A DNA stretch of 64,000 nucleotides from a virus. Lineage: Duplodnaviria; Heunggongvirae; Uroviricota; Caudoviricetes. Below the pieces are notes generated by a model that saw only the letters and a program-made list of their open reading frames with translations, was not told the origin of the DNA and ran no database searches. The stretch is taken from IMG/VR virus record IMGVR_UViG_3300042006_000024, one strand, 5' to 3'. Shown here in pieces: positions 6,194 to 52,961 of this stretch (the stretch's first letter is position 1; the number at the start of each line of letters is the position of its first letter). The position numbers and the translations under genes are program-made.

Positions 6194-7888
6194 TTAGTCA
6201 ATCAGGCGTTGACGAATCTCGGACAGACTTGTTTCAGATACAACACCGTTGTGGAACAGAATCTCCATCGCACCCAGGTTGTCGATATCACTCATCGGTT
6301 GTTGGTCGTACAAGACGAACTCATCACCTTCTTTCTCGACTCGCAGAAGACCTTTAGCCGACTTCTTGAGCGCGTCACCAGTCTTCGGATCTTTGAACAG
6401 CTCAATAAATTCACCGTCAATGACAGTAGCTGTGGCTTTAACAGCACTACCAAAAGTATCACGAGTTGAATAGTTGTAAGTGTAACTGCCAATGCCAAGT
6501 ACCACATTGCCACTTGCGAAGCCCTTATCCATCAGACGTTGCAGAATTTCCCACTGACGTTCCAGGGTGATGCTGTCACCGTAGATCAGACCGATGTGAG
6601 TGTCGAGTTGTTTGAAGCCTTTGTCGGAGTAAGTACCACCGAAGGTTTCCCACAGCAGTTCGATAGAACCTTTGACTTCGTGATCTGGTATAACTTCACC
6701 AACTGCTACGCGGCTTGGGTCAACACGATCAAATCGACGATACTGATCACCAATACGAACAACTTGAGCCTTACCGATAGAACTCAGCTTTGCGGTTTCG
6801 AAGTCATACGCTTTGTAGAATGCATCAACACTATCGAACTCATCAGCCAGAACATGTAAACCGCAGATGATTTCGATTGGATTGCCGCTGTCAGGGCGAA
6901 TGACCAAACGACCATCACGCGCCATAATTGCCTCTTTGACGCCCGGAGTAGGCAAGAGCTGAGTCAGCAAACCCCAGTAATCGTAGGTGTCAGCAACATA
7001 GCTGGCAAAGCCTGTAGGCACGATGCGAGTGATGTAGTCGAGCAGGAAGCGAACTTCACCGAGCAACAGGTATTGTTCATCGGTCATGCCAGGCATTTCT
7101 TCGCGCAGTGCACGAACGTGGAACAGGATGTTGCTGGAACTGATGCTGTGTTCAGTAGCAGGTACACTACCACCAATCAGTTCGTTGTCGGAATCGGCGT
7201 GGTAGTAGTCTTCCACGTAGTCGATAGCCGATACCACATCAGTGCCAGTGAACGACAGCAAGTGAGCAGCACCCGAACGCGCAGCATCTTCAGGACCCGA
7301 CATACCGCGAGAAGAGAAGTCGTGACCTTGCCACTGGATCGCTTCTTTCGGCGTACCAGTCAGTTCAGCGAAGTGTTCGAACACGCGGCGATATTCGTAG
7401 GCGATGGTCGCGTTGAGACTGGATTTCCAGTTCGAGTTCGATAGAGTCGGTTCGATGTAGTTGACCAACCAGGCGAAGTCAGGGTGAGTGTTGTTGATCA
7501 TCATTGTTGGAACTTTCATGCTGACGCGACTGCCTTCTGGCAGAGCGCGTACAAGCAGCGGCAGATAGCCCAGATCATGCAGTTGAGCGAAGCCGTCAGC
7601 AGGGATAACGCCAGGGCCCATCATGTTGTTACAACGACGTTGATAGCGCGCAACAGCTTGTTCTTTTGGTAGGTTGAAGAACTGTTCATTGAACGCTTCA
7701 ACCAGGAATTCGGACGCGAAACCTTGACCACCAAACACAACCATCTTCTTGTCGAACAGTGGGCCACCTTTGAACAGGCGGTCACTGCGAGGGGTGAAAT
7801 TTGAAGACAGGAAAGTAGTGAATATGCGCATCATTGCGCGGTGACCAAGTTTATACGCGTCGGTTGCTGACAGAGGTTGCAGTTTCAT
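6194..7888 (-). CDS. nicotinamide phosphoribosyltransferase family protein (NAMPT/NadV-like; Namat-like)
   Basis: 564 aa. N-terminal DAYKLGH motif and typical NAMPT length. Sits 50 nt downstream of the Prs-like gene with its own RBS. Confidence 0.85.
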   Translation of the reverse strand: MKLQPLSATDAYKLGHRAMMRIFTTFLSSNFTPRSDRLFKGGPLFDKKMVVFGGQGFASEFLVEAFNEQFFNLPKEQAVARYQRRCNNMMGPGVIPADGFAQLHDLGYLPLLVRALPEGSRVSMKVPTMMINNTHPDFAWLVNYIEPTLSNSNWKSSLNATIAYEYRRVFEHFAELTGTPKEAIQWQGHDFSSRGMSGPEDAARSGAAHLLSFTGTDVVSAIDYVEDYYHADSDNELIGGSVPATEHSISSSNILFHVRALREEMPGMTDEQYLLLGEVRFLLDYITRIVPTGFASYVADTYDYWGLLTQLLPTPGVKEAIMARDGRLVIRPDSGNPIEIICGLHVLADEFDSVDAFYKAYDFETAKLSSIGKAQVVRIGDQYRRFDRVDPSRVAVGEVIPDHEVKGSIELLWETFGGTYSDKGFKQLDTHIGLIYGDSITLERQWEILQRLMDKGFASGNVVLGIGSYTYNYSTRDTFGSAVKATATVIDGEFIELFKDPKTGDALKKSAKGLLRVEKEGDEFVLYDQQPMSDIDNLGAMEILFHNGVVSETSLSEIRQRLID

Positions 7889-7938: not shown

Positions 7939-8763
7939 TTACCAGGGGAAGTAAACCATGTTGGCAGGCATGTTGTTGATTGCAGCGCCTTTGAAGCTTG
8001 TCGTAGTGTACACACGATCAAATTCATTCGCAACTACATCAGCGCCTTTAGTGAACAAGCCGTGAGTTACAGCAAGTTCAACGCGATTTGCGGCAGTAGT
8101 CAGTTTGGCGAGTTCGATGAAAGTACGGCCACCGTCGCAGATGTCGTCAAGTACGAACAAGTTCAAACCAGTTACATCGGCAGACATTGTCAGGCTTGTA
8201 ATGTGACCAGTAGCCATGTCGCGTTCTTTGTTGCAGACGATAACACCTTTTGCACCGACTGCTTTGGCGAACGCTGCCGACTTCTTGTATGCACCTGCAT
8301 CAGGCGCGACGATGTGGATATTCGACCAGTTGCTGTGCACACGACGGAAGATGTCGATCTGGTCGATAACGACGATGTTTTTGATCAGTGCGGACATTAC
8401 ATCGCTGTGTGGATCAAGTACGACGACTTGTTCGAACCCCAGGTTGTTGATAAGTTCCGCCATTACCGCTGCACTGTGAGCATCACCGCGATTGCAGACA
8501 CGATCCTGGCGCGCATACGGCATGTAAGGGATGCGCGCTTTCAACTTGATGCCGACGTATTCACGACGCAACGCATCCACTGTAAACAGCAACTTCATGA
8601 TGTCGTCATTTGTTGCGAGGTACGCAATAACAGTGGCTTCGGTTACTTCAGGATGACCCCAACCAGAAGGCTTTTCACTGTTGAGGCCAATACCCACTTC
8701 ACCAGCAGGGAATTGTTTGTTCTCAATGTCGTAGGTAACATTACCGATAATATACTTGATCAC
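7939..8763 (-). CDS. ribose-phosphate pyrophosphokinase family protein (Prs-like; candidate ADPR pyrophosphokinase Adps)
   Basis: 274 aa with a GTG start. PYARQDR motif and PRPP-binding loop (LDDICDGGRT). Confidence 0.8.
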   Translation of the reverse strand: MIKYIIGNVTYDIENKQFPAGEVGIGLNSEKPSGWGHPEVTEATVIAYLATNDDIMKLLFTVDALRREYVGIKLKARIPYMPYARQDRVCNRGDAHSAAVMAELINNLGFEQVVVLDPHSDVMSALIKNIVVIDQIDIFRRVHSNWSNIHIVAPDAGAYKKSAAFAKAVGAKGVIVCNKERDMATGHITSLTMSADVTGLNLFVLDDICDGGRTFIELAKLTTAANRVELAVTHGLFTKGADVVANEFDRVYTTTSFKGAAINNMPANMVYFPW

Positions 8764-8894: not shown

Positions 8895-9743
8895 TTACTT
8901 GGCGAAGACACGGTTGCTCAGACCGCTGCTACCCATTGCTTCGTATGGTACGAAGATCGCTGCCTTGTTCTCGGCCATCTTCTCCATCACTTCCAGCTGA
9001 CGGTATTGCAGCAGAGTAGGCGTGATGCCCGCGGCGGTGATGTTGTTTTCGTCACGAACAGTCTCAGCACGTTTCATGCGGATGTCGTAGTCTTTGGCAG
9101 CAAGCAGCAGTTCGTTTGCCCGTTCAACCATCTTCACAGCCTGGTTGTTTGCTTCGGTTTCAATCGCCATCTCACGTTCGTTGCGCTTCTGGATCGCGTT
9201 ATCGATTACGTCAGGATAGTCGATGTTCGCCATCGTGATGTTCGACACTTCCAGAGGACTGTTCGCCATCGCTTTGCGCAATTGATCGGTCAGGTCGTTG
9301 CTGATCTTGTCGTAGTTGTTGGCAACTTCGGTCACCTTGTACTTACTCAAGACAGACCGCGATACAGTTTGGACCATGTCCTTACCGTACACACCGTAGA
9401 CCATCGGCAGCGTCACCTGGAATTGCTGGTGCTTGATGTCGTTGAACATCGAGTTGATCACCTTCTCATTACCGTTGATGCGAGTACGGAAGCGCACTTG
9501 CAGGTTCAGGGTCAGGTCGTCGGCCATCTTGACTTGGATCGCCTCGGCCATGGTCTGAGTACTGGTGTCAAGGATCACCATGTCTTCAGTCCACCAGAGC
9601 CAGTACTTGCCAGTCTCTTTGACATCAGTGGAGTAGCCTGCGGCCGACAACACTTTACCTTTTGCTGCTGGCGGAACGGTCACTTTACCACAACCAACCA
9701 TTGCCAGGGCGAGTACTGCACAAACAATCATTTTCTTAAACAT
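8895..9743 (-). CDS. SPFH/band-7 domain lipoprotein
   Basis: Internal start MFKKMIVCAVLALAMVGCG gives a lipobox. Prohibitin-like coiled-coil C-terminus. The longer upstream extension overlaps its neighbour. Confidence 0.7.
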   Translation of the reverse strand: MFKKMIVCAVLALAMVGCGKVTVPPAAKGKVLSAAGYSTDVKETGKYWLWWTEDMVILDTSTQTMAEAIQVKMADDLTLNLQVRFRTRINGNEKVINSMFNDIKHQQFQVTLPMVYGVYGKDMVQTVSRSVLSKYKVTEVANNYDKISNDLTDQLRKAMANSPLEVSNITMANIDYPDVIDNAIQKRNEREMAIETEANNQAVKMVERANELLLAAKDYDIRMKRAETVRDENNITAAGITPTLLQYRQLEVMEKMAENKAAIFVPYEAMGSSGLSNRVFAK

Positions 9744-9744
9744 G

Positions 9745-10062
9745 TTACTTCGTTTCCTTGAGTTTGAGGGAATCTTCGAATTGCTGTTTGATGGAAGCCG
9801 CAGTATTGTGCGTGCTTTCAACTTTGTCAATAGTCAAAACAGGAGTTTCGACATCGAATTTGTTGCGACCAAGATCAGCTTGGCGAGTGCCTACGTCAAA
9901 CGCGCTGAGACCCACTACAGCAGCGAGAACCAGGGTAGCTAGTGCAACATACTTCTTGTGCTGGCGAAAGCTGTGCAGGGTGAGTAACGCAGTCACAGTC
10001 AGCACTACGATTGCCATGTACAGTTGCAGCGGGCTCCAACTCAGGTGAATTTCAACCATCAC
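9745..10062 (-). CDS. membrane protein, possible NfeD-like partner of the SPFH protein
   Basis: 105 aa with two predicted TM helices. Abuts the SPFH gene with a 1-nt gap. Confidence 0.45.
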   Translation of the reverse strand: MMVEIHLSWSPLQLYMAIVVLTVTALLTLHSFRQHKKYVALATLVLAAVVGLSAFDVGTRQADLGRNKFDVETPVLTIDKVESTHNTAASIKQQFEDSLKLKETK

Positions 10063-10640: not shown

Positions 10641-11723
10641 TCAATCGCCCTGTTTGATCAAATAACGGTTCGAAATTGCCTTGAACTGCCAGTTGCGAGT
10701 CAACGACTTGAACACCAAGCCCTCGCGAAACTTACCTTTCAAACCACTGTCACCATCGGCCAGAGCCAAGATTTCGGCCATAGTAGGAGGCAACATCATG
10801 CGCACGCTGAACGTAGGGACCATCTGCAAGTCAAGATCATCACAGACATGCCTTGCCTCACCAGGCAACATGTACTGCTGAGCATCGATGTCAAACACGT
10901 TGTAGACGTACAGCTCAACGTCATCCAAGCCTTCGAAGTTTGACTGGATACCAGGTCCAACCATCTCACCTTGAAGTGCAATGTTACGACCAGTCACGGC
11001 ATGATAGGTGCGCAGTTTGTCGTCAAGGTTGTATTTGTTGAAGGTCTTGACAAAGAGGTTTTCCTCATTGCCTTCAAACTTCAGCTCCAGGTTACGCGAG
11101 CAAACGCCAGTGACAACAACATCCTCAGCATTTTTCTTGACATAGCCTGTGAAGCTGCTACCATCAAGCTTGTAGGTAACGTTGAACTCTTCCTGAGAGT
11201 CAACAGCGTCTTGATACTGACGCTTGAGGTTCTGCACCCGTTCCTGATCGGACTTGCGGATGAACTGCGGGAAGTTGCCTTTGGCCAACCCTGCAAGATT
11301 CGCATTGACTGGGCGTTCCCATTTCAGGATGCCCAGGGTTTCAGTCAGGTCAGTTTCTGTGCCTACCAACAGGTCATCGGCCAACTGAACAGCGATAGCA
11401 TCACCGTTAGGCAACTCTTTCACAGGGATCAACAAGCCTTGACTGATCTCACCGCGCAGTTTGATGGTGCGCAGACGCTCACCTTTGACGCCTTCGTAGA
11501 CCTTCGGCTCTTTGTCTTTCGACAGGAACGGTGCGATCTCATGTGGAATCCAGCTGTCAACTTCGAAGTAACAGGCAATATCACCAGTCACATACAAACC
11601 TTTCTGAGCAACTACACGCCAGCCACCGATTGTGGCGATGTCAAGGGCATCAGCGTTTGGGTGTGCAATTACTTCATCCAGCACAACCAAACGCGCTAGT
11701 TTACGTTCACTCATTTCTTTCAA
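10641..11723 (-). CDS. ATP-dependent RNA ligase (Rnl family)
   Basis: Nucleotidyltransferase motif I YKLDGSS, motif IV EGLVFK, motif V KAISNRYLIK. 360 aa. Confidence 0.65.
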   Translation of the reverse strand: MKEMSERKLARLVVLDEVIAHPNADALDIATIGGWRVVAQKGLYVTGDIACYFEVDSWIPHEIAPFLSKDKEPKVYEGVKGERLRTIKLRGEISQGLLIPVKELPNGDAIAVQLADDLLVGTETDLTETLGILKWERPVNANLAGLAKGNFPQFIRKSDQERVQNLKRQYQDAVDSQEEFNVTYKLDGSSFTGYVKKNAEDVVVTGVCSRNLELKFEGNEENLFVKTFNKYNLDDKLRTYHAVTGRNIALQGEMVGPGIQSNFEGLDDVELYVYNVFDIDAQQYMLPGEARHVCDDLDLQMVPTFSVRMMLPPTMAEILALADGDSGLKGKFREGLVFKSLTRNWQFKAISNRYLIKQGD

Positions 11724-12544
11724 TCCTTCAGGTCAGGGTGTTTGTGTTTGTTGTCAAGCATGAGTTCGATTTCACGCGCTTTGTAACTGATTTCTTCTTT
11801 GGAGAAGGTCGACTCACGGTAATCGTGATAGCGCTGCCATGCACGCATCATTTCATACATCGGTGTGTTGTAGTCAATCTCAGATATGCCAACCCCAAGC
11901 GACTTTGCTACAGCCAAGCGAACACCGAGGGCTGATAGATTGACACCTTCGAGATCCTCGCTGTAGAGTTTCGGATCGATCAACGCACCGACAGCACACA
12001 TGCAACCATCAGAGGTGCGATACTGACACGAACCGTGTTCACCGGCTGCTTGCTTGCCTTGCTTGAGCAAGTGGTCAGCAATATAGCCTGAAACTTGTTT
12101 GATATGACGCTTGGTGATTTCACCGGTCATGTCGTACCGTTCGCGAGTTTTCAGGTGCTCATGCATTGTCGATGGAGAGTCTGGACTACCGGCGTCTGCA
12201 CCTTCTTGAATCCAACGCCCGTAATTAATGCGGAATACAGGTTCACCGTCTTCGTACTGCGCGTATGCGGAATCGTGGTAGTTCTGCCAAGCTTTCAACA
12301 ATGCGAGTGTGTCCACATCGAGCTTCATTTTCAGCGACAAGCCAACGGCGGTGATGATCTCTTCGCGCCCCATAGCCTTGCCTTCAAGTTCAGGGCTGTA
12401 GACTTCATCGGGGATCAAACAACCGACGGCACACATGTTACCGTTGATGTTGCTATACTTACATGTACCATTGTTAGTTTCGCTTTTCGCCTTCTGTTTG
12501 ATCAGATGGTCACGGATCTTTTCGGAGATTTGCAGGAGAGTCAT
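11720..12544 (-). CDS. protein with tandem duplication of a Cys-motif domain (family copies 1 and 2)
   Basis: Two ~135-aa repeats, each with HLIKQ, C.YR and MCAVGCLI motifs. Confidence 0.6.
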   Translation of the reverse strand: MTLLQISEKIRDHLIKQKAKSETNNGTCKYSNINGNMCAVGCLIPDEVYSPELEGKAMGREEIITAVGLSLKMKLDVDTLALLKAWQNYHDSAYAQYEDGEPVFRINYGRWIQEGADAGSPDSPSTMHEHLKTRERYDMTGEITKRHIKQVSGYIADHLLKQGKQAAGEHGSCQYRTSDGCMCAVGALIDPKLYSEDLEGVNLSALGVRLAVAKSLGVGISEIDYNTPMYEMMRAWQRYHDYRESTFSKEEISYKAREIELMLDNKHKHPDLKD

Positions 12545-12945
12545 ACGGTCAGTTCCTTGAGAATCATATCGTGGAAGTGGGTAGGGCTGTTTGGCTCATC
12601 GCTCGGCTTATTAACCCAGTCAGTGTAGCGATAGGTTTTAGTCGACAGCACGTCGCAACTTTCATAAAACGAATCGTGATACGACTGCCATGCGCGAAAC
12701 AGTTGAGACGCTGTTTCATCAACCAACACGCCAGACAGTTTGAGCGCATCAGTGATAGACGGGTCGTCTGCCATCTTACCTTCAAGGTCAGGGTCATATG
12801 CATCATCATTGATGAGGCAACCGACTGCACACATCAAGCCTGCCTCACTGCGGTATTTGCAACTACCATGATCGCTTACGCTTTTGCTACGTTGTTTGAT
12901 CAGATGGTCACGGATTGTTTCGGACAACTGTACAAGAGTTTTCAT
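12541..12945 (-). CDS. Cys-motif domain protein (family copy 3)
   Basis: 134 aa. IRDHLIKQ...CKYR...MCAVGCLI...WQSYHD. Confidence 0.6.
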   Translation of the reverse strand: MKTLVQLSETIRDHLIKQRSKSVSDHGSCKYRSEAGLMCAVGCLINDDAYDPDLEGKMADDPSITDALKLSGVLVDETASQLFRAWQSYHDSFYESCDVLSTKTYRYTDWVNKPSDEPNSPTHFHDMILKELTV

Positions 12946-12950
12946 AACGA

Positions 12951-13289
12951 TTACCTCAAAAATGGATGTGGGAGACAGACTTGGATGTAAGCTTCACCTG
13001 GCTCGCCTTCACCTTCAAGACATCTGAAGCAGTTGGTAGGGAAGCCCAGCATTGTAAACAACTCTTGATGTTCCTCTAGAGTAGCCTCGCGGCCAAGTTC
13101 ATCAAGCGTATTCACGCGCAACCTGTTCTCAACGTTAACCTGACTCAGTACGACAGCAACGACACTAAGCTTAGAGTTGATGAACGCCTCTTCAACAGAA
13201 TGCATGAAGCGGTTGACGTTATCATACTGGCGAATCACGCGTTGAACGCGCACGCGCTTAGCCATTTCACTTGCTAACAAACGGTTCAT
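12951..13289 (-). CDS. hypothetical protein (112 aa)
   Basis: ORF, ATGA-coupled upstream. Confidence 0.5.
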   Translation of the reverse strand: MNRLLASEMAKRVRVQRVIRQYDNVNRFMHSVEEAFINSKLSVVAVVLSQVNVENRLRVNTLDELGREATLEEHQELFTMLGFPTNCFRCLEGEGEPGEAYIQVCLPHPFLR

Positions 13290-13991: not shown

Positions 13992-14300
13992 TCAATACAA
14001 ATCCTCGCTGAACAGTTCGGTCGAACCCTGATTACCAGACTTCAGACGGCGCTTGTTGAGTTGACCACCAGCCAGAGCGATCTTGTAAGCCTCACTGCGA
14101 TCCATGAAGACACCGAACTGGTCGATAAAGCCTTCTTCATACTCACCAAGGCCATCCGATTCGATCAGACGGTCTTCGTTCATACGGTCAAGTTGTGAAT
14201 GCATGACCATATCAAAGTGACGTGCACCTGCAATGATGACCTTGCCATAACGAACAGCCGCACAGACGACGAAACGCCCTTCAATCAGTACAGTGGACAT
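13992..14300 (-). CDS. hypothetical protein (102 aa)
   Basis: ORF. Confidence 0.5.
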   Translation of the reverse strand: MSTVLIEGRFVVCAAVRYGKVIIAGARHFDMVMHSQLDRMNEDRLIESDGLGEYEEGFIDQFGVFMDRSEAYKIALAGGQLNKRRLKSGNQGSTELFSEDLY

Positions 14301-15071: not shown

Positions 15072-16010
15072 TTATTCTTCGATGTAGCTGAAGCTTTCGC
15101 ACACATGGTTCGGGATCAGTTGACGATGCTGAATCCAGCCTTTGAAGTTACCTGAATGGAAGACACCTTTGCGATCCATGTGAGTGATACCCTCCTGCCA
15201 TTCGGTCAAATGCTCATATGCACTATCACCCAAGCGCGGTTTCTCGATTGGAGTACCCTGGTGCTCGAACGGGCTAGCGTGTACTTTATCGGCCCCTACA
15301 AGACGATCATAGAGCCCTACAGCTTTCTCAAGGCTGTCATCACTCTTACGATACGACACTTGGGCACAACATGACGAACTGATCTTCAGGGCTTCAGCCA
15401 GGGTGTACTCATGAACATCTGTACCGCTACCTTCAAGGAACTCGCTCCAGTAGCCGTCGAAGTAGAACGGAACGTGCCACTCACCAGGTAGCAATAGACG
15501 CGGCGAACTTTCGTTGTATGCAGCAAGCATCACGTTAGCCAGGACTTTGATGGTCGGATCAGCCATCTCGCAATGACGCAACCAGAACCAGTTGTCATAT
15601 GAAGTCGAAGTCACAACCACTTTGATGTTCTGGGCGAACTCAGTACCACGGTTGGCGACTTGCTTGTGATAACCCGCTTCAGCAAAACCTTCACTGAACT
15701 TGGCAGCGCTCAGTGCCATCAGCTTCCACCATTCTTGAGGTGTGTAGCCGTTGATCAGTTCGAAGTGTTCACCAGCGTCCTGCATACCAGTCTGGTTCTT
15801 ACCGAAGTGAACAGGCATTGCAGGGTCGTTCATGACACGATCAAGCACAGCCTTTGTAGGGATAGCGCGTGAACTTGCGGCATTACGCGAGAACTCACGG
15901 TGAGTCATCAGCTCGGCGTGAACGATGCGCGGATAGTCGAGGACGAAGGTCGTAATGCGGACACCATCTTCATTAATGGAGTCAGCAATGATTTCAGCAG
16001 TAACGGTCAT
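15072..16010 (-). CDS. thyX: flavin-dependent thymidylate synthase (ThyX-like)
   Basis: HREFSRNAASSR matches the ThyX RHR-x7-S motif region. 312 aa. In the td position next to the nrd genes. Confidence 0.6.
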   Translation of the reverse strand: MTVTAEIIADSINEDGVRITTFVLDYPRIVHAELMTHREFSRNAASSRAIPTKAVLDRVMNDPAMPVHFGKNQTGMQDAGEHFELINGYTPQEWWKLMALSAAKFSEGFAEAGYHKQVANRGTEFAQNIKVVVTSTSYDNWFWLRHCEMADPTIKVLANVMLAAYNESSPRLLLPGEWHVPFYFDGYWSEFLEGSGTDVHEYTLAEALKISSSCCAQVSYRKSDDSLEKAVGLYDRLVGADKVHASPFEHQGTPIEKPRLGDSAYEHLTEWQEGITHMDRKGVFHSGNFKGWIQHRQLIPNHVCESFSYIEE

Positions 16011-18501: not shown

Positions 18502-20790
18502 TTAGATTACACAGGACGGGCAGGACGCTTCGTCTTCTTGCTCAACTACTTCTGGCACAGCACAATCAAGCGCAAGACTCTTCTCCTCTTCGGTCTTGAT
18601 CATCTTACGGTTGTTGTGGTAGTAGCCAGTTTTCCCGCCGAGTTTATAGATCAATGTCATGTCATTCAGAATCACGGTCGCCGGTACCTTGTTGTCAGGG
18701 TACTTAGTGTTGTCGTAGCGAGTGTTCAGCGAGATAGCCTGATCCATACGCTTCTGCATAATGCAGGAGATTTTGATGTAACCGTGAAGATTAACGTCCC
18801 ACTCAAGTTGGTACTTGTGCTTCAGGCGATCATACTCAGGCACAACAAACTTAGTACCAGACTTAGCAACGATCAGGTTGCGAACAGGCTCTTGACCATT
18901 AGTCATGTTCTGCACACGCGAAGACGTTTCAGACGGCATGTTGCACATCAAGGTCGCGTTACGAATGCCCGATACCTTCATGCGCGCACGCAACGGCTCC
19001 CACGGCATACGCTCAACATGAGGAATAACTTCATCAATGCCTTTCTTGCGCACGTCTTGAGGGAAGATGCCCTGAGCGTATTTGGTGTTTTCAACTTTAC
19101 CGCATGCACCGTACAGTTCAGCAAGTTCAACCGACGCTTGAGTCAGATAGAACGCCATCGCTTCCATGTATTCATCGACAACTTCAAACGCACCTTCATC
19201 GAACTTCAGACCACGTTTAGCCAGGAAGTAAGCGAGGTTGTTTACGCCGATGCCCAGAGGACGATACCAGTCAGTGCTGTTTTTCGCAGCGGGCAGCAAG
19301 TATGGCTGATAGTCAAGCAAGGCGTCAAGTGCGAACACAGCAAGACGGCAAGGAACTTCGAAGTCAGACGGCTTCTTGATTGCACCCCAGTTGATTGCAC
19401 TCAGGTTGCACAGACTGATCAGCGCGTTCATGTCCTCAAGACTCATCAGTTCGATGGTCGGCAGTGTCACTTCAGTGCACAGGTTCGACATGCGAATAGG
19501 TGCGTTCTTAGCAACAAAACTACCCTGTTCGTTCGAGTTGTCGACGAAGTGGAAGTAAACACGCGAGGTCGAAGAACGCTCGGTAGCGATCATGTCACGC
19601 AGTTTGCTACCTTCGATGATACGACGGGTTTTGGTTTCGTCTTTCTCATACAGCTCATACAGACGCGCAAACTCAACTTGGTCATCGCAGAACGCCTTCT
19701 GAAGCAGTGGAACTTCCTCAGGGGAGAACAGGGTGACGGCTTCGCGCTTGAGAATACGTTTCCACAGATAACCGTTCAGGTTGAATGCGTGGTCAGCGTG
19801 ACGAATGCGTGTTTCTTCAGTGCCTTTGTTGTTCTTCAGTACCAGCAGCTTCTCAACATCCAAGTGCCAGATGTTGTGGTAGTAAGTCTCGCTACCCTTA
19901 CGCATGCCGCCCTGACTAGAAGCCCCTACAATCGCTCGTGACGCTTGAGCAAAGCCAATCACGCCAGTAGTCGTCACGTCACCGTTACGAACAGGCTGCC
20001 CCTCAGCACGCAGGTTAAACACGCCAAGACCGATGCCTGCCTTGTTAGTCGCATACTTCAGCACTGCTTGATAGGTCGCACCAATCGAGTCAATCGAATC
20101 GCCCATTTCAATCAGGGTGCAACTTGCGCCTTGTGGGTTCGGTGTACGAATCGATGCAGCGATCGGACTCGGGATACTGATACCCGCTTCAGACAGCTGG
20201 TTGTAGTAGCCTTTGACCATCGTGATGCCGAAGCGATCAACGTACTTGCGCATCAGAACAGCGGCTACCAGGATGTAGGCCACTTGAGGCGTTTCGTGGT
20301 AGACCTTCTGCTTACGATTCTGCACCAAATACTTGTCAAGCCACTCACGCGCACCCGAGATACGGAAGTTAAAGTCGTTGTCATGCTTGACAAACGATTC
20401 AATCTTGGCCCATTGCTCAGGCGTGTACATGTTCAACAGGTCTTTGTGATACCAACCCGACTTGACGTTCTTTTCAACGATCCCGTACAGCGAAGGAACT
20501 TCGAACTGACCATAAACTTCTTTGCGCAGTGCCAGCATAACCAGACGACCAGCAACCAGGTCATAGTTCGGATAATCTGGCGAGATGAGTTCGTGTGCAG
20601 AGTCGATCAGCGAGGTATGCAAGTCAGACGTTTTCATGCCGTCATGAAACTTCAGTCCAGCCTGTGCTTCGATCTCAGAAGGTGAAACGTTGCTTACGCC
20701 GTCACATGCCCATACTAATACCTTGTGAATCTTGTTGATGTCCAACAGTTCGCGTGAACCATTGCGCTTAATGAGGAAAATATCTTTCAT
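18502..20790 (-). CDS. nrdA: ribonucleotide reductase class Ia alpha subunit
   Basis: 762 aa. N-terminal ATP cone and catalytic motifs (NLCTEV, C-terminal CPSC pair). Confidence 0.9.
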   Translation of the reverse strand: MKDIFLIKRNGSRELLDINKIHKVLVWACDGVSNVSPSEIEAQAGLKFHDGMKTSDLHTSLIDSAHELISPDYPNYDLVAGRLVMLALRKEVYGQFEVPSLYGIVEKNVKSGWYHKDLLNMYTPEQWAKIESFVKHDNDFNFRISGAREWLDKYLVQNRKQKVYHETPQVAYILVAAVLMRKYVDRFGITMVKGYYNQLSEAGISIPSPIAASIRTPNPQGASCTLIEMGDSIDSIGATYQAVLKYATNKAGIGLGVFNLRAEGQPVRNGDVTTTGVIGFAQASRAIVGASSQGGMRKGSETYYHNIWHLDVEKLLVLKNNKGTEETRIRHADHAFNLNGYLWKRILKREAVTLFSPEEVPLLQKAFCDDQVEFARLYELYEKDETKTRRIIEGSKLRDMIATERSSTSRVYFHFVDNSNEQGSFVAKNAPIRMSNLCTEVTLPTIELMSLEDMNALISLCNLSAINWGAIKKPSDFEVPCRLAVFALDALLDYQPYLLPAAKNSTDWYRPLGIGVNNLAYFLAKRGLKFDEGAFEVVDEYMEAMAFYLTQASVELAELYGACGKVENTKYAQGIFPQDVRKKGIDEVIPHVERMPWEPLRARMKVSGIRNATLMCNMPSETSSRVQNMTNGQEPVRNLIVAKSGTKFVVPEYDRLKHKYQLEWDVNLHGYIKISCIMQKRMDQAISLNTRYDNTKYPDNKVPATVILNDMTLIYKLGGKTGYYHNNRKMIKTEEEKSLALDCAVPEVVEQEDEASCPSCVI

Positions 20791-46287: not shown

Positions 46288-48534
46288 ATGCTGTCAGATA
46301 AAGCGAACATACTCCTAAGGGCGATTAAGGGTTCTGAACTTACCCACGTCGAAATGGACACGAACCTGGACGAGATCAAAAAGGTCATTGATGATGTGCA
46401 TGCGCTGAATGACGCCGTTGAGGCCGATTCTCCGTTGAAAGCGCCATTGGCGAGTCCTGCGTTCACAGGGCTGCCCACTGCCCCTACGCCATCGGTTGAA
46501 GATAATTCTGATCTCCTGGCTACGACTGCCCACGTTCATAGCGCAGTCGACGTTCTAGGGGCTGACATTCTGAGCCGCTTGAAGTTGCGCCCTGAAACGT
46601 TCGGCGCAGTGGGTGATGGTGTAGCTGACGATACCGCCGCATGGAACTTGCTGCTAGATGCAATGTTGCTGACCAAGCGAAAAGGTGAATGTGTTCCAGG
46701 TGCACAGTACAAGATCACTTCAGTCCTAACGCGCACGCTGGTTGATACCGATGTGTTTGACCTCGATATGAATGGCGCGACGTTCATTCAGGGTGGCAAC
46801 AATAGCGTCCTTGTACTGACTAACAGCGTTAATGGTACTGTCACATCAGTAACCGAGAATGTCCAAATATCGTACAACTTGGGCAACGGCGCGACCAATA
46901 CCTATGTGATGAAAGTTACATCAGTTGGTCACGGCTTCACGACTCCTGGTCAGATTGGTAAGATCTTCAGTGACGATATCGTTCCTGACTTCGATGGCTC
47001 TAATCAATACTGCGGTGAGTTCTTCACTGTTAGTGCAATTGAAAGCGCCGATATCTTCTACACCTTTGGCGTCTTCGATGAAACATATCTGACCAACGTC
47101 AAAGTTTGTCGGCCGTCGGGTGCTAAAGTCAACATCGACAACTTCGCAGGTAAATCAACTTGGGCTGATTCGGTCACTGCGAGCTTCTGCACTATCTCGG
47201 GTTTGATTAATCCGGTCTTCGGTGGTACTGTTCGAGCGAATGACATAAACGCACCGTTCTTGAACTTTACAAGTACATACCGTGCCAAGCTGAGCAAGAT
47301 CATTGGTCGCAATATCAAGAACCGCCCTGACTTGGGTGCTTATGGTTATTTGATTAACGACAGCGCAGCCTACTACAGTGACATTTCAGGCATCGATTGC
47401 ATCTTTGCACGTCATGATTACACCACAAGTTCCCCATCAGCAGTCGCGGGCGATGACAAACCGTTCCTTCGTGGTCGTACAATTGGTTCAGTCGTTCGAG
47501 ACAGCGTAGGTAACTCGTTTGATACCCACAGTCCATGCCTGCGTATCACCTTTGAAAACTGCAAGCCAGTTGACTCACATCGTGGTTACGACTACGGTGG
47601 TGCTGGTATTCAGATTCGCGGTAACGATTGCCAAATCATCAACTGCGACGTATCACATTCGAAGATTGGTGTTGCTCAAAGCAGTGCAAGTAAAACGGGT
47701 CCAGCCAAACTGCTGATCGATGGGTTAAAGTATCGTGGCCCGAACGGTCATACACCAGTCGTGATTAACGGTATCACTGCATTCGAAACCATCGTTACTT
47801 TCCGTGGTGACATTGAAAGTCAAGCAAGCTCGATTTTCGAAGTGACTAACGCTACTCTGATCGTCAATGGCACGCGTGTGACAATGCGTCCAACTGATAA
47901 CGGTGCAGCAATGGTCAACTTGAACACTGGTGGCAATCTTGAATGGCAGGGTGGTTCACTCAACATCACCAATGGCAACAGCCACAAGATCGTTGCACAC
48001 CTTGATACTGCAACCACAGCGAAAGTTGATGGTCTGTCAGTTCGCGGTGTTACTGGTCGTCTGTCGTACCTTGCTACTTCAGCATCACAATACGCAATTG
48101 AATCACGCTTCACTAACATCCAACTTGATGCTGCATTGCCAGGCAACCCGTTCTTAGGTTATGAAGCTACATTACCTAAAGTCAGTGCTGAGTTCTGCAT
48201 AGGCTACAACTTGCGTCCATTGGCGTATCGTGTGTTCACGTACGGTACTACGGGCAACCAGGCAATTGATTTGCAGTTTGCAGGCAATCAGTCGATATTC
48301 CTTCGAGTTGAAGCGACAGCAACTGGTGTTGTAATTAACTCATTGACTCAGGGTGCGTTCGCTGGTCAGCGTTTGATTATCAACAACCGCAACTCATCGA
48401 CGTTCTCGCTGAACGTGGCAAACAACTCAGGTGGGTTATTGACAATGGCTGCAAGTGCTACACTGACAGCTGGTCGAGGTATTACGTTAGTGTGGGATGG
48501 TAGCACATGGCGTTCTGCTGATAACCACGCATAA
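46288..48534 (+). CDS. tail fibre / tailspike protein 2 with pectate-lyase-superfamily beta-helix
   Basis: FGAVGDGVADDTAAWN motif typical of right-handed beta-helix depolymerases. 748 aa. Confidence 0.65.
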   Translation: MLSDKANILLRAIKGSELTHVEMDTNLDEIKKVIDDVHALNDAVEADSPLKAPLASPAFTGLPTAPTPSVEDNSDLLATTAHVHSAVDVLGADILSRLKLRPETFGAVGDGVADDTAAWNLLLDAMLLTKRKGECVPGAQYKITSVLTRTLVDTDVFDLDMNGATFIQGGNNSVLVLTNSVNGTVTSVTENVQISYNLGNGATNTYVMKVTSVGHGFTTPGQIGKIFSDDIVPDFDGSNQYCGEFFTVSAIESADIFYTFGVFDETYLTNVKVCRPSGAKVNIDNFAGKSTWADSVTASFCTISGLINPVFGGTVRANDINAPFLNFTSTYRAKLSKIIGRNIKNRPDLGAYGYLINDSAAYYSDISGIDCIFARHDYTTSSPSAVAGDDKPFLRGRTIGSVVRDSVGNSFDTHSPCLRITFENCKPVDSHRGYDYGGAGIQIRGNDCQIINCDVSHSKIGVAQSSASKTGPAKLLIDGLKYRGPNGHTPVVINGITAFETIVTFRGDIESQASSIFEVTNATLIVNGTRVTMRPTDNGAAMVNLNTGGNLEWQGGSLNITNGNSHKIVAHLDTATTAKVDGLSVRGVTGRLSYLATSASQYAIESRFTNIQLDAALPGNPFLGYEATLPKVSAEFCIGYNLRPLAYRVFTYGTTGNQAIDLQFAGNQSIFLRVEATATGVVINSLTQGAFAGQRLIINNRNSSTFSLNVANNSGGLLTMAASATLTAGRGITLVWDGSTWRSADNHA

Positions 48535-50193: not shown

Positions 50194-50814
50194 TCAGACG
50201 TGACTCACCTCAAAGTTTTCATACACCACCCAACCACCTTCAGACTCAGGACCCTCGTTGTCGATGACATAAGCGCCTGCTTTGAAGTAGAACGGGAACT
50301 CGGTCCACGCCGCATCGACAGTCACTGCATACACCAAGCCGTTAAGCTTGATCTGCAAGACATCGTCAGTGCCCATTGCCAAGCTATAGCTGAACGACTC
50401 GCCAAGCTTGCAGGGTACTGTGAGGACTTTGACGGCGGTGCCGCTAGGCTTCAGTCGCAAGTCAACCCGCGCAACGCCATTCCACCATGTAACCATCAGG
50501 AATGGGTTAGGTGCTTTGTGCGCGTGAATTTGACCGATGATGACTTTACCTGAACTCGGCGCAAGCTCGACACGAACCGTGCCTTGCATGGTGTGAACAG
50601 CTTCCCCTGCTACCCAGTTATAAGACTCGGCACTGTCAGGAAGCGTTTCACGACTTTCAGTGCGTGGACTAGAGCTAGAACCAGATGTGTCACCTAGTAC
50701 TGAGCACCAATAGTTGGTGTGGCCTTTAGGATCGGTCCACACCAGATTGGCTGGAGGTTTCTCAGGGTACAGATAGACCTGACCGTGTGCAGTGATATTG
50801 CCAAAGCTGAACAT
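50194..50814 (-). CDS. polysaccharide lyase family 7 (alginate-lyase-like) protein
   Basis: PL7 signature blocks RTESRE, QIH and YFKAGAY in the right order. 206 aa. Confidence 0.55.
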   Translation of the reverse strand: MFSFGNITAHGQVYLYPEKPPANLVWTDPKGHTNYWCSVLGDTSGSSSSPRTESRETLPDSAESYNWVAGEAVHTMQGTVRVELAPSSGKVIIGQIHAHKAPNPFLMVTWWNGVARVDLRLKPSGTAVKVLTVPCKLGESFSYSLAMGTDDVLQIKLNGLVYAVTVDAAWTEFPFYFKAGAYVIDNEGPESEGGWVVYENFEVSHV

Positions 50815-50867: not shown

Positions 50868-51269
50868 TTACTCAGCATTCTCGAACAGTGCAGCAGGTGA
50901 CAGGCCGTAGTTTATGGCAATACGTTGCATGTTCTCCAATACCTGTTCGATCAGCTGGTTACTGTCATGTGCGTTCTGAAGTGTTTGAATCAGATTTTGG
51001 TGCGCGTTTGGTGCGTAGCCTTCTTTGACAATTTCGAGCCATCCCATTCCTTCTGACGGATCGAAGATAGCCAAGTACTCATCGTCTGCAATCAAACAAC
51101 CTGCGGCACACATAGTCCCACCAGTGCCACGATATGCGCAAGTGCCGGTGGTGATACCACTATCCTCTTCTTTCATCGAACGCTTACCTTGCTTGACCAG
51201 ATGACGTGCAACCTGATCGAACACTTGTTGCGCTGTTGCATCTTTCAATGTAGCCAGTGTGATAGTCAT
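50868..51269 (-). CDS. Cys-motif domain protein (family copy 4)
   Basis: VARHLVKQGK...CAYR...MCAAGCLIADDEY...LQNAHD. Confidence 0.6.
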   Translation of the reverse strand: MTITLATLKDATAQQVFDQVARHLVKQGKRSMKEEDSGITTGTCAYRGTGGTMCAAGCLIADDEYLAIFDPSEGMGWLEIVKEGYAPNAHQNLIQTLQNAHDSNQLIEQVLENMQRIAINYGLSPAALFENAE

Positions 51270-51295: not shown

Positions 51296-51769
51296 TTAGA
51301 CGACAGCGCCGAAGCGGTCGAAGTGTTCAAGCGCGAGATCGAGGTACATCATCCACGCTGCACGAATGGTGAGTTTCTTGTAGCGGTAATCACAGAAGCC
51401 TTCTTTTTCATGTGGCTGCCAGGTGCTGAAATCAACAGTGCCTTCATGGTAAACGAGAACTGATGCCGCACGCTTTTCAAAGCGTGCGTTCACTTCTACA
51501 AGTGGAAAACCAGCGGGTACAGGCGTGTGGGTCCAGATGTTAACCTCAGTCTTAGGTGCAGTGCGACTATCCCAAATGATTGGATCATCAGCGTTAACAA
51601 CACCGTCACGGATGAGGATATATTCAACATCGTATTGACTGCGATCTTTCAGCTCTTGCATTGCGAAGTCAATCGCTTTCTGAACACCACCCAACCATTT
51701 ACAAAACACGAATGTCTGCTTAGGGTTGCGTGTGGCTATTGCAAAGGTATAACCGATAGGCTTGCTCAT
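51296..51769 (-). CDS. hypothetical protein (157 aa)
   Basis: ORF. Confidence 0.5.
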   Translation of the reverse strand: MSKPIGYTFAIATRNPKQTFVFCKWLGGVQKAIDFAMQELKDRSQYDVEYILIRDGVVNADDPIIWDSRTAPKTEVNIWTHTPVPAGFPLVEVNARFEKRAASVLVYHEGTVDFSTWQPHEKEGFCDYRYKKLTIRAAWMMYLDLALEHFDRFGAVV

Positions 51770-51963
51770 GCTTGTTCCTTAGGAATGGTGTGACCGATTT
51801 TCAAACGTGAGCCCAGCCAGTAATGCTTTTCCATGCGCTGAAGATCATTGATGCTGATGGTCGACATTTCTTTCCAATGCTTGAGTGCATACGCCTCAAG
51901 CTCGTTTTCAGGAAAGAGGGTGATGATACCATCACCCGTCATTTCAGCTCGCATTGAAAGCAT
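51766..51963 (-). CDS. hypothetical protein (65 aa)
   Basis: ORF with an ATGA overlap. Confidence 0.4.
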   Translation of the reverse strand: MLSMRAEMTGDGIITLFPENELEAYALKHWKEMSTISINDLQRMEKHYWLGSRLKIGHTIPKEQA

Positions 51964-52330
51964 CCAGGTTGAGTTCGTAGGTAGTGCCTACTTCTTTCAT
52001 CTTCACAAGGACGCTTTCAATGAGACCAGACCGATCGTGTGCGCGTTGCAGAGCGATGATCAAGTTTTGGTGGTGCTCAGGAACAGTCTGATTGGATACT
52101 AATCGATCCCAAGTACCGCCACCGTTTCCAGCGCCATTGTCGAATTGTGGCAGATATTCATCATCAGCGATGAGGCAACCTGCCGCACACATCAAGCCAT
52201 TGACACCACGGTAGAGGCACATTTGTGAACCAGGATTGACCGAACGCTTACCTTGTTTGATCATATGCGTGACAACCTGGTCAAACACTTGTTGAGCGGT
52301 TGCATCTTTCAGGGTGGCCAAAGTAATCAT
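51944..52330 (-). CDS. Cys-motif domain protein (family copy 5)
   Basis: N-terminal 18 aa almost identical to copy 4. CLYR...MCAAGCLIADDEY. Confidence 0.6.
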   Translation of the reverse strand: MITLATLKDATAQQVFDQVVTHMIKQGKRSVNPGSQMCLYRGVNGLMCAAGCLIADDEYLPQFDNGAGNGGGTWDRLVSNQTVPEHHQNLIIALQRAHDRSGLIESVLVKMKEVGTTYELNLDAFNAS

Positions 52331-52737
52331 TTCGAAAGCTCTTCCAGGTTGAATTGAAGTTTGTGTTTCTTGGCGAAGTGTTTGAGACGACGAGGGTAGT
52401 CAATTGCACCCACTTCATCAATGTCCCAGCGGTCTACGTTCATGTCATGCATCTTCTGGAGCATGTCGATGAAGTACGCATGCTTACTCGGGACTTGCTC
52501 AGGGAACGCCTCAGAGCAAGACAACCAGCTGCCGCGTTTGTCGAACTTGATGTCGTACTCTTCATCGGTCATGAGACAGCCTGCCGCACACATCAGACCA
52601 TTACCTGGACGGTACTGACACATACCTGCGTCGTTCGTGGCGCGGACTTTCTGTTTGATCAAGTGACGAGCCACCTGATCGAAGATCTGCTGTTCGGTTG
52701 CGTCTTTCAAATTTGCGAGTGTGATTTGCATGATCAT
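52327..52737 (-). CDS. Cys-motif domain protein (family copy 6)
   Basis: VARHLIKQK...CQYR...MCAAGCLMTDEEY...LQKMHD. Confidence 0.6.
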   Translation of the reverse strand: MIMQITLANLKDATEQQIFDQVARHLIKQKVRATNDAGMCQYRPGNGLMCAAGCLMTDEEYDIKFDKRGSWLSCSEAFPEQVPSKHAYFIDMLQKMHDMNVDRWDIDEVGAIDYPRRLKHFAKKHKLQFNLEELSK

Positions 52738-52961
52738 TATCCCAGGAAGGCGTGAGTGTCGGTTGGCGAAGGAGCTTTCGGCATTGGCATCCAGTGACTG
52801 TAGCGGGTCTTGAAGAACTCGTCCTTCTTGACAATCAGGAAAGTAGGAACACCGATCCAGATTTGTTCAGCGATACTGAACATGAAGACGATATCACCGT
52901 CAGCCTTGGTAGGCATACACTTTGCGGTTTCGAAATAGTACTGCTGTTGATGGCAAATCAT
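52737..52961 (-). CDS. hypothetical protein (74 aa)
   Basis: ORF. Confidence 0.4.
   Translation of the reverse strand: MICHQQQYYFETAKCMPTKADGDIVFMFSIAEQIWIGVPTFLIVKKDEFFKTRYSHWMPMPKAPSPTDTHAFLG

Follow-up and report, generated by a model that had tools for sequence, protein, structure and literature searches.

The 64,000-nucleotide stretch of the Caudoviricetes record IMGVR_UViG_3300042006_000024 (hereafter the window, meaning this whole stretch) contains five minus-strand genes, named A to E here. According to the open reading frame (ORF) listing and the alignment of the translations, they carry six in-register copies of one domain of about 120 residues (Table 1). A preliminary description of this DNA, made from the letters alone, had reported six copies of a Cys-motif domain in two clusters, and this observation is confirmed far beyond chance. 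Alignment of the six domains is in register and shows 17 invariant columns, among them Q..C.Y...G.MCA.G.L...Y...Q..HD, and all five proteins match phrog_17693, a cluster of unknown function (E 5e-14 to 2e-26, with B matched twice). The BLASTP scores are 36–56 bits for cross-cluster pairs and 67–129 bits for within-cluster pairs. A scan of all six frames of the window with a family hidden Markov model (HMM) recovered exactly six domains, with no seventh copy. The first cluster does hold three domains including a tandem pair, but the ORF listing assigns them to two proteins (A and B) and not to three. The stop codon of A overlaps the start codon of B (ATGA), and C and D overlap likewise by 4 nt, while cluster 2 is interrupted, as two ORFs outside the family lie between D and E. 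Residues are numbered throughout with protein D as the reference.

Table 1. Coordinates of the family genes and of other features in the window.
Feature	Position	Strand	Description
Gene A	12541-12945	-	134 aa; one subfamily II domain, without the ITLATL N-terminal extension; phrog_17693 E 4.6e-14
Gene B	11720-12544	-	274 aa; tandem fusion of two subfamily II domains; phrog_17693 in two stretches, E 1.3e-21
B domain 1	~12131-12544	-	motif CAVGC
B domain 2	~11723-12130	-	motif CAVGA; variant position (D position 52) at ~11965-11967
Gene C	52327-52737	-	136 aa; one subfamily I domain, N-terminus ITLANLKDAT; phrog_17693 E 3.1e-24
Gene D	51944-52330	-	128 aa; one subfamily I domain; phrog_17693 E 1.9e-26
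Key codons of D	C38 52217-52219; C48 52187-52189; H98-D99 52034-52039	-	D numbering
Gene E	50868-51269	-	133 aa; one subfamily I domain; phrog_17693 E 6e-26
Two unrelated ORFs between D and E	51296-51769 and 51766-51963	-	157 aa (phrog_24669) and 65 aa (homologue of pf16 gp227)
RNA ligase	10641-11723	-	N-terminal PHA02142 OB-fold domain and PF09414; phrog_968; 70% identical to pf16 gp168
Thymidylate synthase	15072-16010		
NrdA	18502-20790		
T4_Y16D homologue	13992-14300	-	102 aa; phrog_839; L099 and L100 orthologues carry PF26092 (T4_Y16D)
SPFH/Band_7 gene	8895-9830	-	precedes the Prs-like/Nampt-like pair
Prs-like gene	7939-8763	-	Pribosyltran_N and Pribosyltran
Nampt/NAPRTase-family gene	6194-7888	-	after the Prs-like gene
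sigma70-like site	13525->13497	-	TTGACG-17-TACAAT, 10/12; upstream of the block o13286-o12951-A-B-ligase

Conservation was computed over 374 distinct family domains. C38, Y40, C48, G51, Q95, H98 and D99 are conserved in 100% of them, followed by Q26 (99%), A49 (98%), H22 (95%), Q13 (94%), Y59 and L53 (both 93%), R41 (90%) and C52 (86%). Each of the six window copies retains the invariant polar residues, and so does each half of every fused protein. These are far more invariant polar residues than a structural core requires. Their number, and their retention in every paralogue beside variable segments (the lids, below), argue for a single conserved functional site whose surroundings can be tuned, and against a core that is only structural with binding surfaces that evolve freely. 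Most members contain 3–4 Cys. The Cys positions had been described as near-invariant, and this is true of C38 and C48 across the family, while the last Cys of MCAxGC (C52) is an Ala in domain 2 of B. A metal or redox site at C38, C48, H98 and D99 is plausible, judging from the sequence pattern.

A thiol-redox protein would use such residues for dithiol-disulfide cycling, at C38/C48 (CX9C) or at C48/C52 (CxxxC), for example in the service of a phage ribonucleotide reductase or of nucleotide metabolism. The invariant Cys pair is predicted to lie on the two arms of one hairpin with the third Cys four residues further on, and the setting is one of nucleotide metabolism and replication: NrdA and thymidylate synthase are encoded in the window, a glutaredoxin in the relative L100, and ligases, polymerase and primase at other loci. 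However, the family has neither a thioredoxin-like fold nor a CxxC motif, and C52 is dispensable. Redox cycling also leaves the invariant H98, D99, Q26, Q95 and Y40 unexplained and offers no obvious rationale for six paralogues in one genome. We regard a redox function as distinctly unlikely.

The AlphaFold2 model of D, built with a 55-sequence alignment, has a predicted local distance difference test score (pLDDT) of 94.2 and a predicted template modelling score (pTM) of 0.89. It contains helices at residues 12–26, 61–64, 74–79, 88–99 and 104–117, and a small hairpin that bears C38 and C48. The model of whole B reaches a pLDDT of 92 and a pTM of 0.89, and such a high pTM for a two-domain protein indicates a defined, fixed packing of both domains. 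C52, the third Cys of the CAAGC motif, is lost in 46% of the domains of fused proteins (33 of 72) and in 6.6% of single-domain proteins (20 of 301; Fisher p = 3e-14), and its substitutes are dissimilar (A, V, W, H, P, F). Some fused proteins lack C52 in both domains, and in the orthologues of B, domain 1 reads CAVGC while domain 2 reads CAVG(A/V/S) throughout. A loss that is tied to fusion and has varied substitutes is expected of an interface Cys made redundant by the fusion. Together with the confidence of the whole-B model and the ATGA overlaps, it suggests that the unit is a dimer with C52 at or near its interface.

Our preferred reading, at a probability of about 0.35, is a small protein that dimerises and holds a small ligand, probably nucleotide-like, in a Cys2-His(-Asp) metal or thiol pocket, with an accessory or counter-defence role. 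Each copy would fold independently into a mostly helical module of about 120 residues, in which the small hairpin and two helices are predicted to gather a polar site made of H22, Q26, C38, Y40, R41, C48, Q95, H98 and D99. This site would most likely be a Cys2-His(-Asp) metal or thiol centre, and the flanking Gln, Tyr and Arg would hold a small anionic ligand such as a nucleotide, with the same chemistry or binding in every paralogue. The working unit would probably be a dimer: single-domain proteins may homodimerise or pair with a translationally coupled neighbour, and B-type proteins would be covalently fused dimers. A variable "lid" (roughly residues 60–87 and the segment after HD) would differ among paralogues and retune the specificity for ligand or target. 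The genes would be non-essential accessory early or middle genes that are duplicated, fused and relocated separately in the different phage lineages, and their role would probably be host takeover or counter-defence.

No characterised relative was found for the family. Pfam and NCBIfam scans of the five proteins gave nothing above threshold, and neither did Pfam scans of 55 and 10 further members. None of the PADLOC defence models matched any of the five proteins at E <= 1, the best hit of the PDB sequence-profile searches had only E 0.28, and Foldseek against 350,542 chains returned nothing better than E 2.1. The BFVD fold search returned only uncharacterised phage proteins, namely gp226, gp170 and gp169 of Pseudomonas phage pf16 and B2ZXP5 of phiRSL1, and weaker Foldseek matches there (probability 0.9) were 132-aa actinophage proteins. 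Literature searches by family identifiers and accession numbers found no paper on the family. The phrog_17693 model has 259 positions, which corresponds to the tandem form as in pf16 gp226, and it is a catalogue cluster only. Thus the family does not map to any well-characterised housekeeping domain in the Pfam, PDB and fold searches; it is uncharacterised, catalogued only as phrog_17693 and "hypothetical protein", and absent from Pfam, PDB and the searchable literature. In view of this distance from any characterised family or solved fold, we count it as a new family and fold; the newness lies at this level, and no new mechanism is demonstrated.

Several known protein types were rejected as candidates. 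Thioredoxin- or glutaredoxin-type redox proteins carry a CxxC motif on a thioredoxin fold, and the family has none. HNH, GIY-YIG and other homing endonucleases give no Pfam, PHROG or structural match in the five proteins. HD-domain phosphohydrolases are likewise all-helical, and the His in an early helix (H22) and the HD doublet in a later helix could jointly bind a metal in a similar way. However, the spacing is 76 residues here and about 30 there, the family lacks the final Asp after HD, and its two invariant Cys have no counterpart in HD domains. There is also no Pfam HD match, and the sole HD-family structure found (6dkd) has a Foldseek probability of 0.02.

A single named lead emerged, DUF6197 (PF19698), a likewise uncharacterised family found in actinophages and Actinobacteria. 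Its proteins have about 120–140 aa and share a helix 1, a hairpin, a G-x-x-C-A-x-G segment and a later (H/N)-D doublet with the window family, but they lack C38, Y40 and H98. In Gordonia cluster A15 phages there are two copies per genome and tandem two-domain versions (PMC10586128), and the DUF6197 proteins of actinophages adjoin genes of DNA polymerase I or of a DnaB-like helicase (L090, L093–L098). The 132-aa actinophage matches of the BFVD search are a further point of resemblance. The best Pfam score to DUF6197 is 12.2 bits (B domain 2, E 0.22), against a gathering cut-off of 24.6, and one of 55 family members reaches E 0.08. Verified and related DUF6197 proteins were collected from eight phages, the verified ones from phages of Gordonia, Mycobacterium, Rhizobium and Stenotrophomonas, and profiles were built from gp47 and gp72 of Gordonia phage Nebulosus (L090) and six other phage proteins. 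Against this thin profile (5–9 sequences), hhalign gave probabilities of 6–19% with P of 1.2e-3 to 1.7e-3; helix 1 and the CAxG segment are the only parts that align consistently, and HD is not paired with ND. The shared genomic habits hint at a wider superfamily, and homology to DUF6197 is possible, though not established.

The family is widespread in phages. With D as the query, a word-indexed search returned 111 homologues, none of which carries a Pfam domain or any name beyond "hypothetical". In a profile search of 1.84 billion cluster representatives, 23,592 clusters passed E <= 1e-3 and 15,573 passed E <= 1e-10. A typical member is a single domain of 115–135 aa, while some have two domains (230–320 aa) and one has three (411 aa). 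The fused architecture of B is kept in 18 homologues with 51–100% identity. Search of other phage genomes found annotated carriers among the phages of eight host genera (Pseudomonas, Ralstonia, Xanthomonas, Burkholderia, Sinorhizobium, Caulobacter, Vibrio and Synechococcus), always as "hypothetical" proteins. In pf16, Astolliot, Milchi, Xoo-sp13 and BUCT-ZZ01, the genes occupy 3–4 places per genome. We fetched 85 loci (76 viral and 9 from genomes); a family gene was called in 69 of them, and 23 of those contain 2–4 copies within 20 kb. Tandem two- and three-domain proteins and multi-copy occurrence thus recur across the family, and its description as a phage-expanded family of unknown function holds.

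Outside phages the family is scarce. A pattern-seeded scan of 185,579 species, with one genome per species, found only 9 loci, mostly in metagenome-assembled genomes (MAGs), and no homologue was found among 72,556 plasmids. The locus in a Luteibacter isolate is probably a prophage, given the CI-like repressor and the DnaB-like helicase beside it. The family is almost phage-only. One locus (L009; CAKZOW010000117.1, labelled as an uncultured archaeon MAG) is a 128-kb contig binned as archaeal, on which three family genes lie within 1.3 kb of each other. It is probably a mis-binned phage contig; otherwise the host range would extend.

The window belongs to a pf16-like Pseudomonas phage; pf16 is a peripheral T4-like myovirus of the genus Chakrabartyvirus, and the NrdA proteins of both are 82% identical. 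Near-identical DNA was not found among phage records, and metagenomic contigs about 162 kb long carry the same proteins. Both clusters are present in pf16 as well, with four domains instead of six. Its gp170 (149 aa), gp169 (132 aa) and gp168 (RNA ligase) are the counterparts of A, B and the ligase, while cluster 2 corresponds to gp226, a 258-aa protein of two fused domains, so the fusion lies in the other cluster than in the window. The identity matrix separates two subfamilies, with C, D, E and both domains of gp226 in subfamily I and A, both domains of B, gp169 and gp170 in subfamily II. In both of them, copies of the same genome are closer to each other than to those of the other phage (53% for A and B domain 1 vs 45% for A and gp169; 58% for D and E vs 45% for D and gp226 domain 1), indicating lineage-specific duplication or concerted evolution. 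Magill et al. counted the gp169/170 pair among seven duplications in pf16 but took its analysis no further (PMC5587285), and duplication with divergence is a known evolutionary mode in T4-like phages (PMC5587285). Their listing does not tie gp169/170 to gp226, to the wider family or to the motif (PMC5587285).

A selfish mobile gene, spreading within and between phage genomes in the manner of a homing endonuclease, could account for dispersed copies in variable number and for insertions relative to pf16, such as C and D, which lie between the homologues of pf16 gp228 and gp227. However, the domain is too small for a DNA-binding module, and the orthologues show stable synteny and purifying selection. 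We hold this explanation to be very improbable.

Evolutionary rates were computed against L099 and L100, two relatives with conserved synteny. The ratio of nonsynonymous to synonymous rates (dN/dS) is 0.16 for A and 0.21–0.32 for B, compared with 0.11–0.14 for the RNA ligase and 0.03–0.07 for the Prs-like gene, and the family genes are under purifying selection. They nevertheless evolve faster than their neighbours. In the L099 comparison, dN of B is 0.094 and that of the ligase 0.019, a difference of about 5 times, and the family proteins are only 38–41% identical to those of pf16, while the ligase, thymidylate synthase and NrdA reach 70%, 75% and 82%. Within B, the nonsynonymous to synonymous proportions (pN/pS) are 0.00–0.13 in core segments and 0.46–0.65 in lid segments (residues 101–125 and 165–225). 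Synonymous change is also raised in the lid stretches of B, so a recombinant patch is as likely as selection. Positive selection was not detected by pairwise and sliding-window Nei-Gojobori analysis, in which no 25-codon window of B exceeded 1 apart from a tail at noise level.

The nearly identical N-termini of D and E had been taken as a sign of recent duplication, and this claim is not supported. In the first 22 codons of D and E, 19 residues are identical, and 10 of them use different synonymous codons. The ITLATLxxATxQQVFDQV motif occurs in about 75–80% of all family domains, from unrelated phages, so the N-terminal identity reflects a constrained motif rather than a recent duplication. 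Over their whole length, D and E are only 54–58% identical.

The preliminary description had proposed an arms-race effector family, and such proteins would be protein-binding inhibitors, in which the Cys and His hold a structural zinc and each lid blocks a different host defence or housekeeping protein. There are several diverged paralogues per genome, whose number and location are not the same in the window phage as in pf16, and the closeness of same-genome copies points to lineage-specific expansion. The faster change of B relative to the adjacent ligase is concentrated in the lids, the proteins are small and mildly acidic (median isoelectric point 5.1), and cluster 1 lies in a counter-defence-type neighbourhood. 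However, a structural zinc takes four ligands, and at least nine more polar residues (Q13, Q26, Y40, R41, Y59, Q95, D99 and others) are near-invariant. As the 374 domains come from widely differing phages and hosts, a ligand common to all of them fits this near-invariance better than protein targets that vary with the host. In addition, dN/dS stays under 0.35 over whole genes and under 0.7 in the lids. The arms-race proposal is thus backed by turnover and neighbourhood but not by the gene-wide dN/dS values, and we consider the inhibitor explanation possible but doubtful.

Cluster 1 belongs to a co-directional block in the order thymidylate synthase, small ORFs including the T4_Y16D homologue, A, B, RNA ligase, SPFH/Band_7 gene, Prs-like gene and Nampt-like gene. 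The ligase lies directly downstream of B, and its likely start is the ATG at 11712–11714, 5 nt past the B stop, rather than the listed TTG. The order of two family genes followed by the ligase is kept in pf16 (gp170-gp169-gp168), L099 and L100. Co-transcription of A and B with the RNA ligase, as previously proposed, is plausible from the tight packing and overlaps and from this conserved order. The sigma70 promoter named for it exists as a consensus match, and it is only that: such sites are not enriched in the window (3 found vs 4.5 expected from shuffles), and the annotated "phage-specific promoters" of pf16 yielded no usable shared motif.

The gene order raises the question of a functional link with the ligase, in which the family proteins would be RNA or DNA end-repair accessories, for example an end-healing or substrate-presenting subunit. 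The A-B-ligase genes overlap or nearly abut, and this arrangement is kept in all three relatives; within 10 kb of family genes, RNA ligase (phrog_968) is found at 9 and ATP-dependent DNA ligase at 8 of about 70 viral loci. However, these loci come from few related lineages, cluster 2 and most family loci have no ligase nearby, and where one is present the median distance is 6.6 kb. No phosphoesterase or kinase motif was detected in the five proteins by the Pfam scan. An accessory of the ligase is, in our view, quite improbable, slightly more so than the redox protein.

Further downstream, the Prs-like and Nampt-like genes resemble the NARP1 operon (Adps and Namat) in gene order and domain content; the arrangement is the same in L099 and L100. 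The NARP1 nicotinamide adenine dinucleotide (NAD+) reconstitution operon counters NAD+-depleting defences (bioRxiv 10.1101/2024.02.11.579819). The position of cluster 1 beside the RNA ligase and this NARP1-like pair suggests that the family probably has an accessory or counter-defence role. The T4_Y16D homologue in the same block is 98% identical to its L099 counterpart, with dN/dS of 0.07.

Cluster 2 closes a long series of small hypothetical genes, and it adjoins an alginate-lyase-like protein and a baseplate and tail-fibre module. Directly downstream of E, the ORF at 50194–50814 (-) encodes 206 aa with an Alginate_lyase2 (PF08787) match, and the ORF at 46288–48534 (+), which adjoins the baseplate genes, encodes 748 aa with Phage_depo_C. 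Both annotations were taken from precomputed Pfam matches of the same genes on contig L002. Both products may be depolymerases that act on capsule or alginate, which would be relevant to a Pseudomonas host.

To summarize the neighbours, about 2,900 ORFs from the 85 loci were clustered, and no conserved neighbour was found: the commonest one lies about 5 kb away and occurs in 15 of about 70 loci. The lack of a neighbour conserved across the 76 viral loci suggests that the protein acts alone. Its usual setting is among small same-strand genes in replication or nucleotide-metabolism regions, and it is also found in temperate phages, beside integrase or repressor genes. In the window, long ORFs at 12095–12628 (+), 12571–12990 (+) and 52354–52755 (+) are antisense shadows of A, B and C without homologue support. 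Antisense conserved ORFs of this sort gave spurious "adjacent neighbour" clusters in the locus analysis.

Several points weigh against the dimeric protein with a small-ligand pocket that we favour. Six enzymes sharing one active site in a single phage genome would be unusual. No member is fused to a domain that has a known function; the extensions of the longer members are functionally uncharacterised, and one at a C-terminus matches PHROGs of unknown function. The C52 statistic is not corrected for phylogeny and ignores non-independence. Finally, it is only in the pf16-like lineage that the family adjoins the ligase and the NARP1-like pair, RNA ligase being elsewhere at the few and distant loci counted above.

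A more specific form of the proposal is a phage-specific fold that would bind or hydrolyse nucleotide-type molecules, such as immune second messengers or NAD+-derived products, at the Cys2-His-Asp centre, with the different lids of several paralogues and fused heterodimers covering different signals. We think this version unlikely, if somewhat less so than the redox protein. In working style only, the family resembles Tad1, Tad2, Acb2, Acb1, Apyc1 and RyDEP, which are small, phage-specific, oligomeric accessory proteins with conserved ligand pockets. To our knowledge, none of these families uses a Cys2-His-Asp signature. The PDB profile and fold searches showed no sequence or fold similarity to any solved phage anti-defence structure (sponges and signal-degrading enzymes). 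Among phage proteins of the Tad1 to RyDEP kind, whose targets are nucleotide immune signals that they bind or destroy, some are encoded close to genes for NAD+ reconstitution (bioRxiv 10.64898/2026.05.28.727677; 10.1101/2024.02.11.579819). Another such candidate for comparison, aRad1, is described in the aRES paper as a small protein that has a Gly loop and a Trp.

The family is very abundant and sharply defined, while its function is a conjecture. If the pocket is a catalytic or ligand-binding centre, it would represent a new protein fold and chemistry, carried by very many phages of Proteobacteria and cyanobacteria and possibly by actinophages through DUF6197. If the nucleotide-signal version is true, the family, with roughly 23,600 clusters, would rank among the most widespread undescribed counter-defence modules. 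If it is a structural or minor accessory protein, this would be an ordinary paralogous "hypothetical protein" family. The multi-copy and tandem pattern, and the position of cluster 1 between the RNA ligase and a NARP1-like pathway, make it a reasonable counter-defence candidate, and the sharp signature and confident models make it directly testable.

The 112-aa ORF just upstream of A, at 12951–13289 (-), has no PHROG or Pfam match. It is 61% identical to its L099 counterpart (dS about 2.1), while the flanking genes are 96–100% identical. By sequence comparison this looks like a local allele-replacement hot spot, and B (84% identity) shows the pattern in a milder form.

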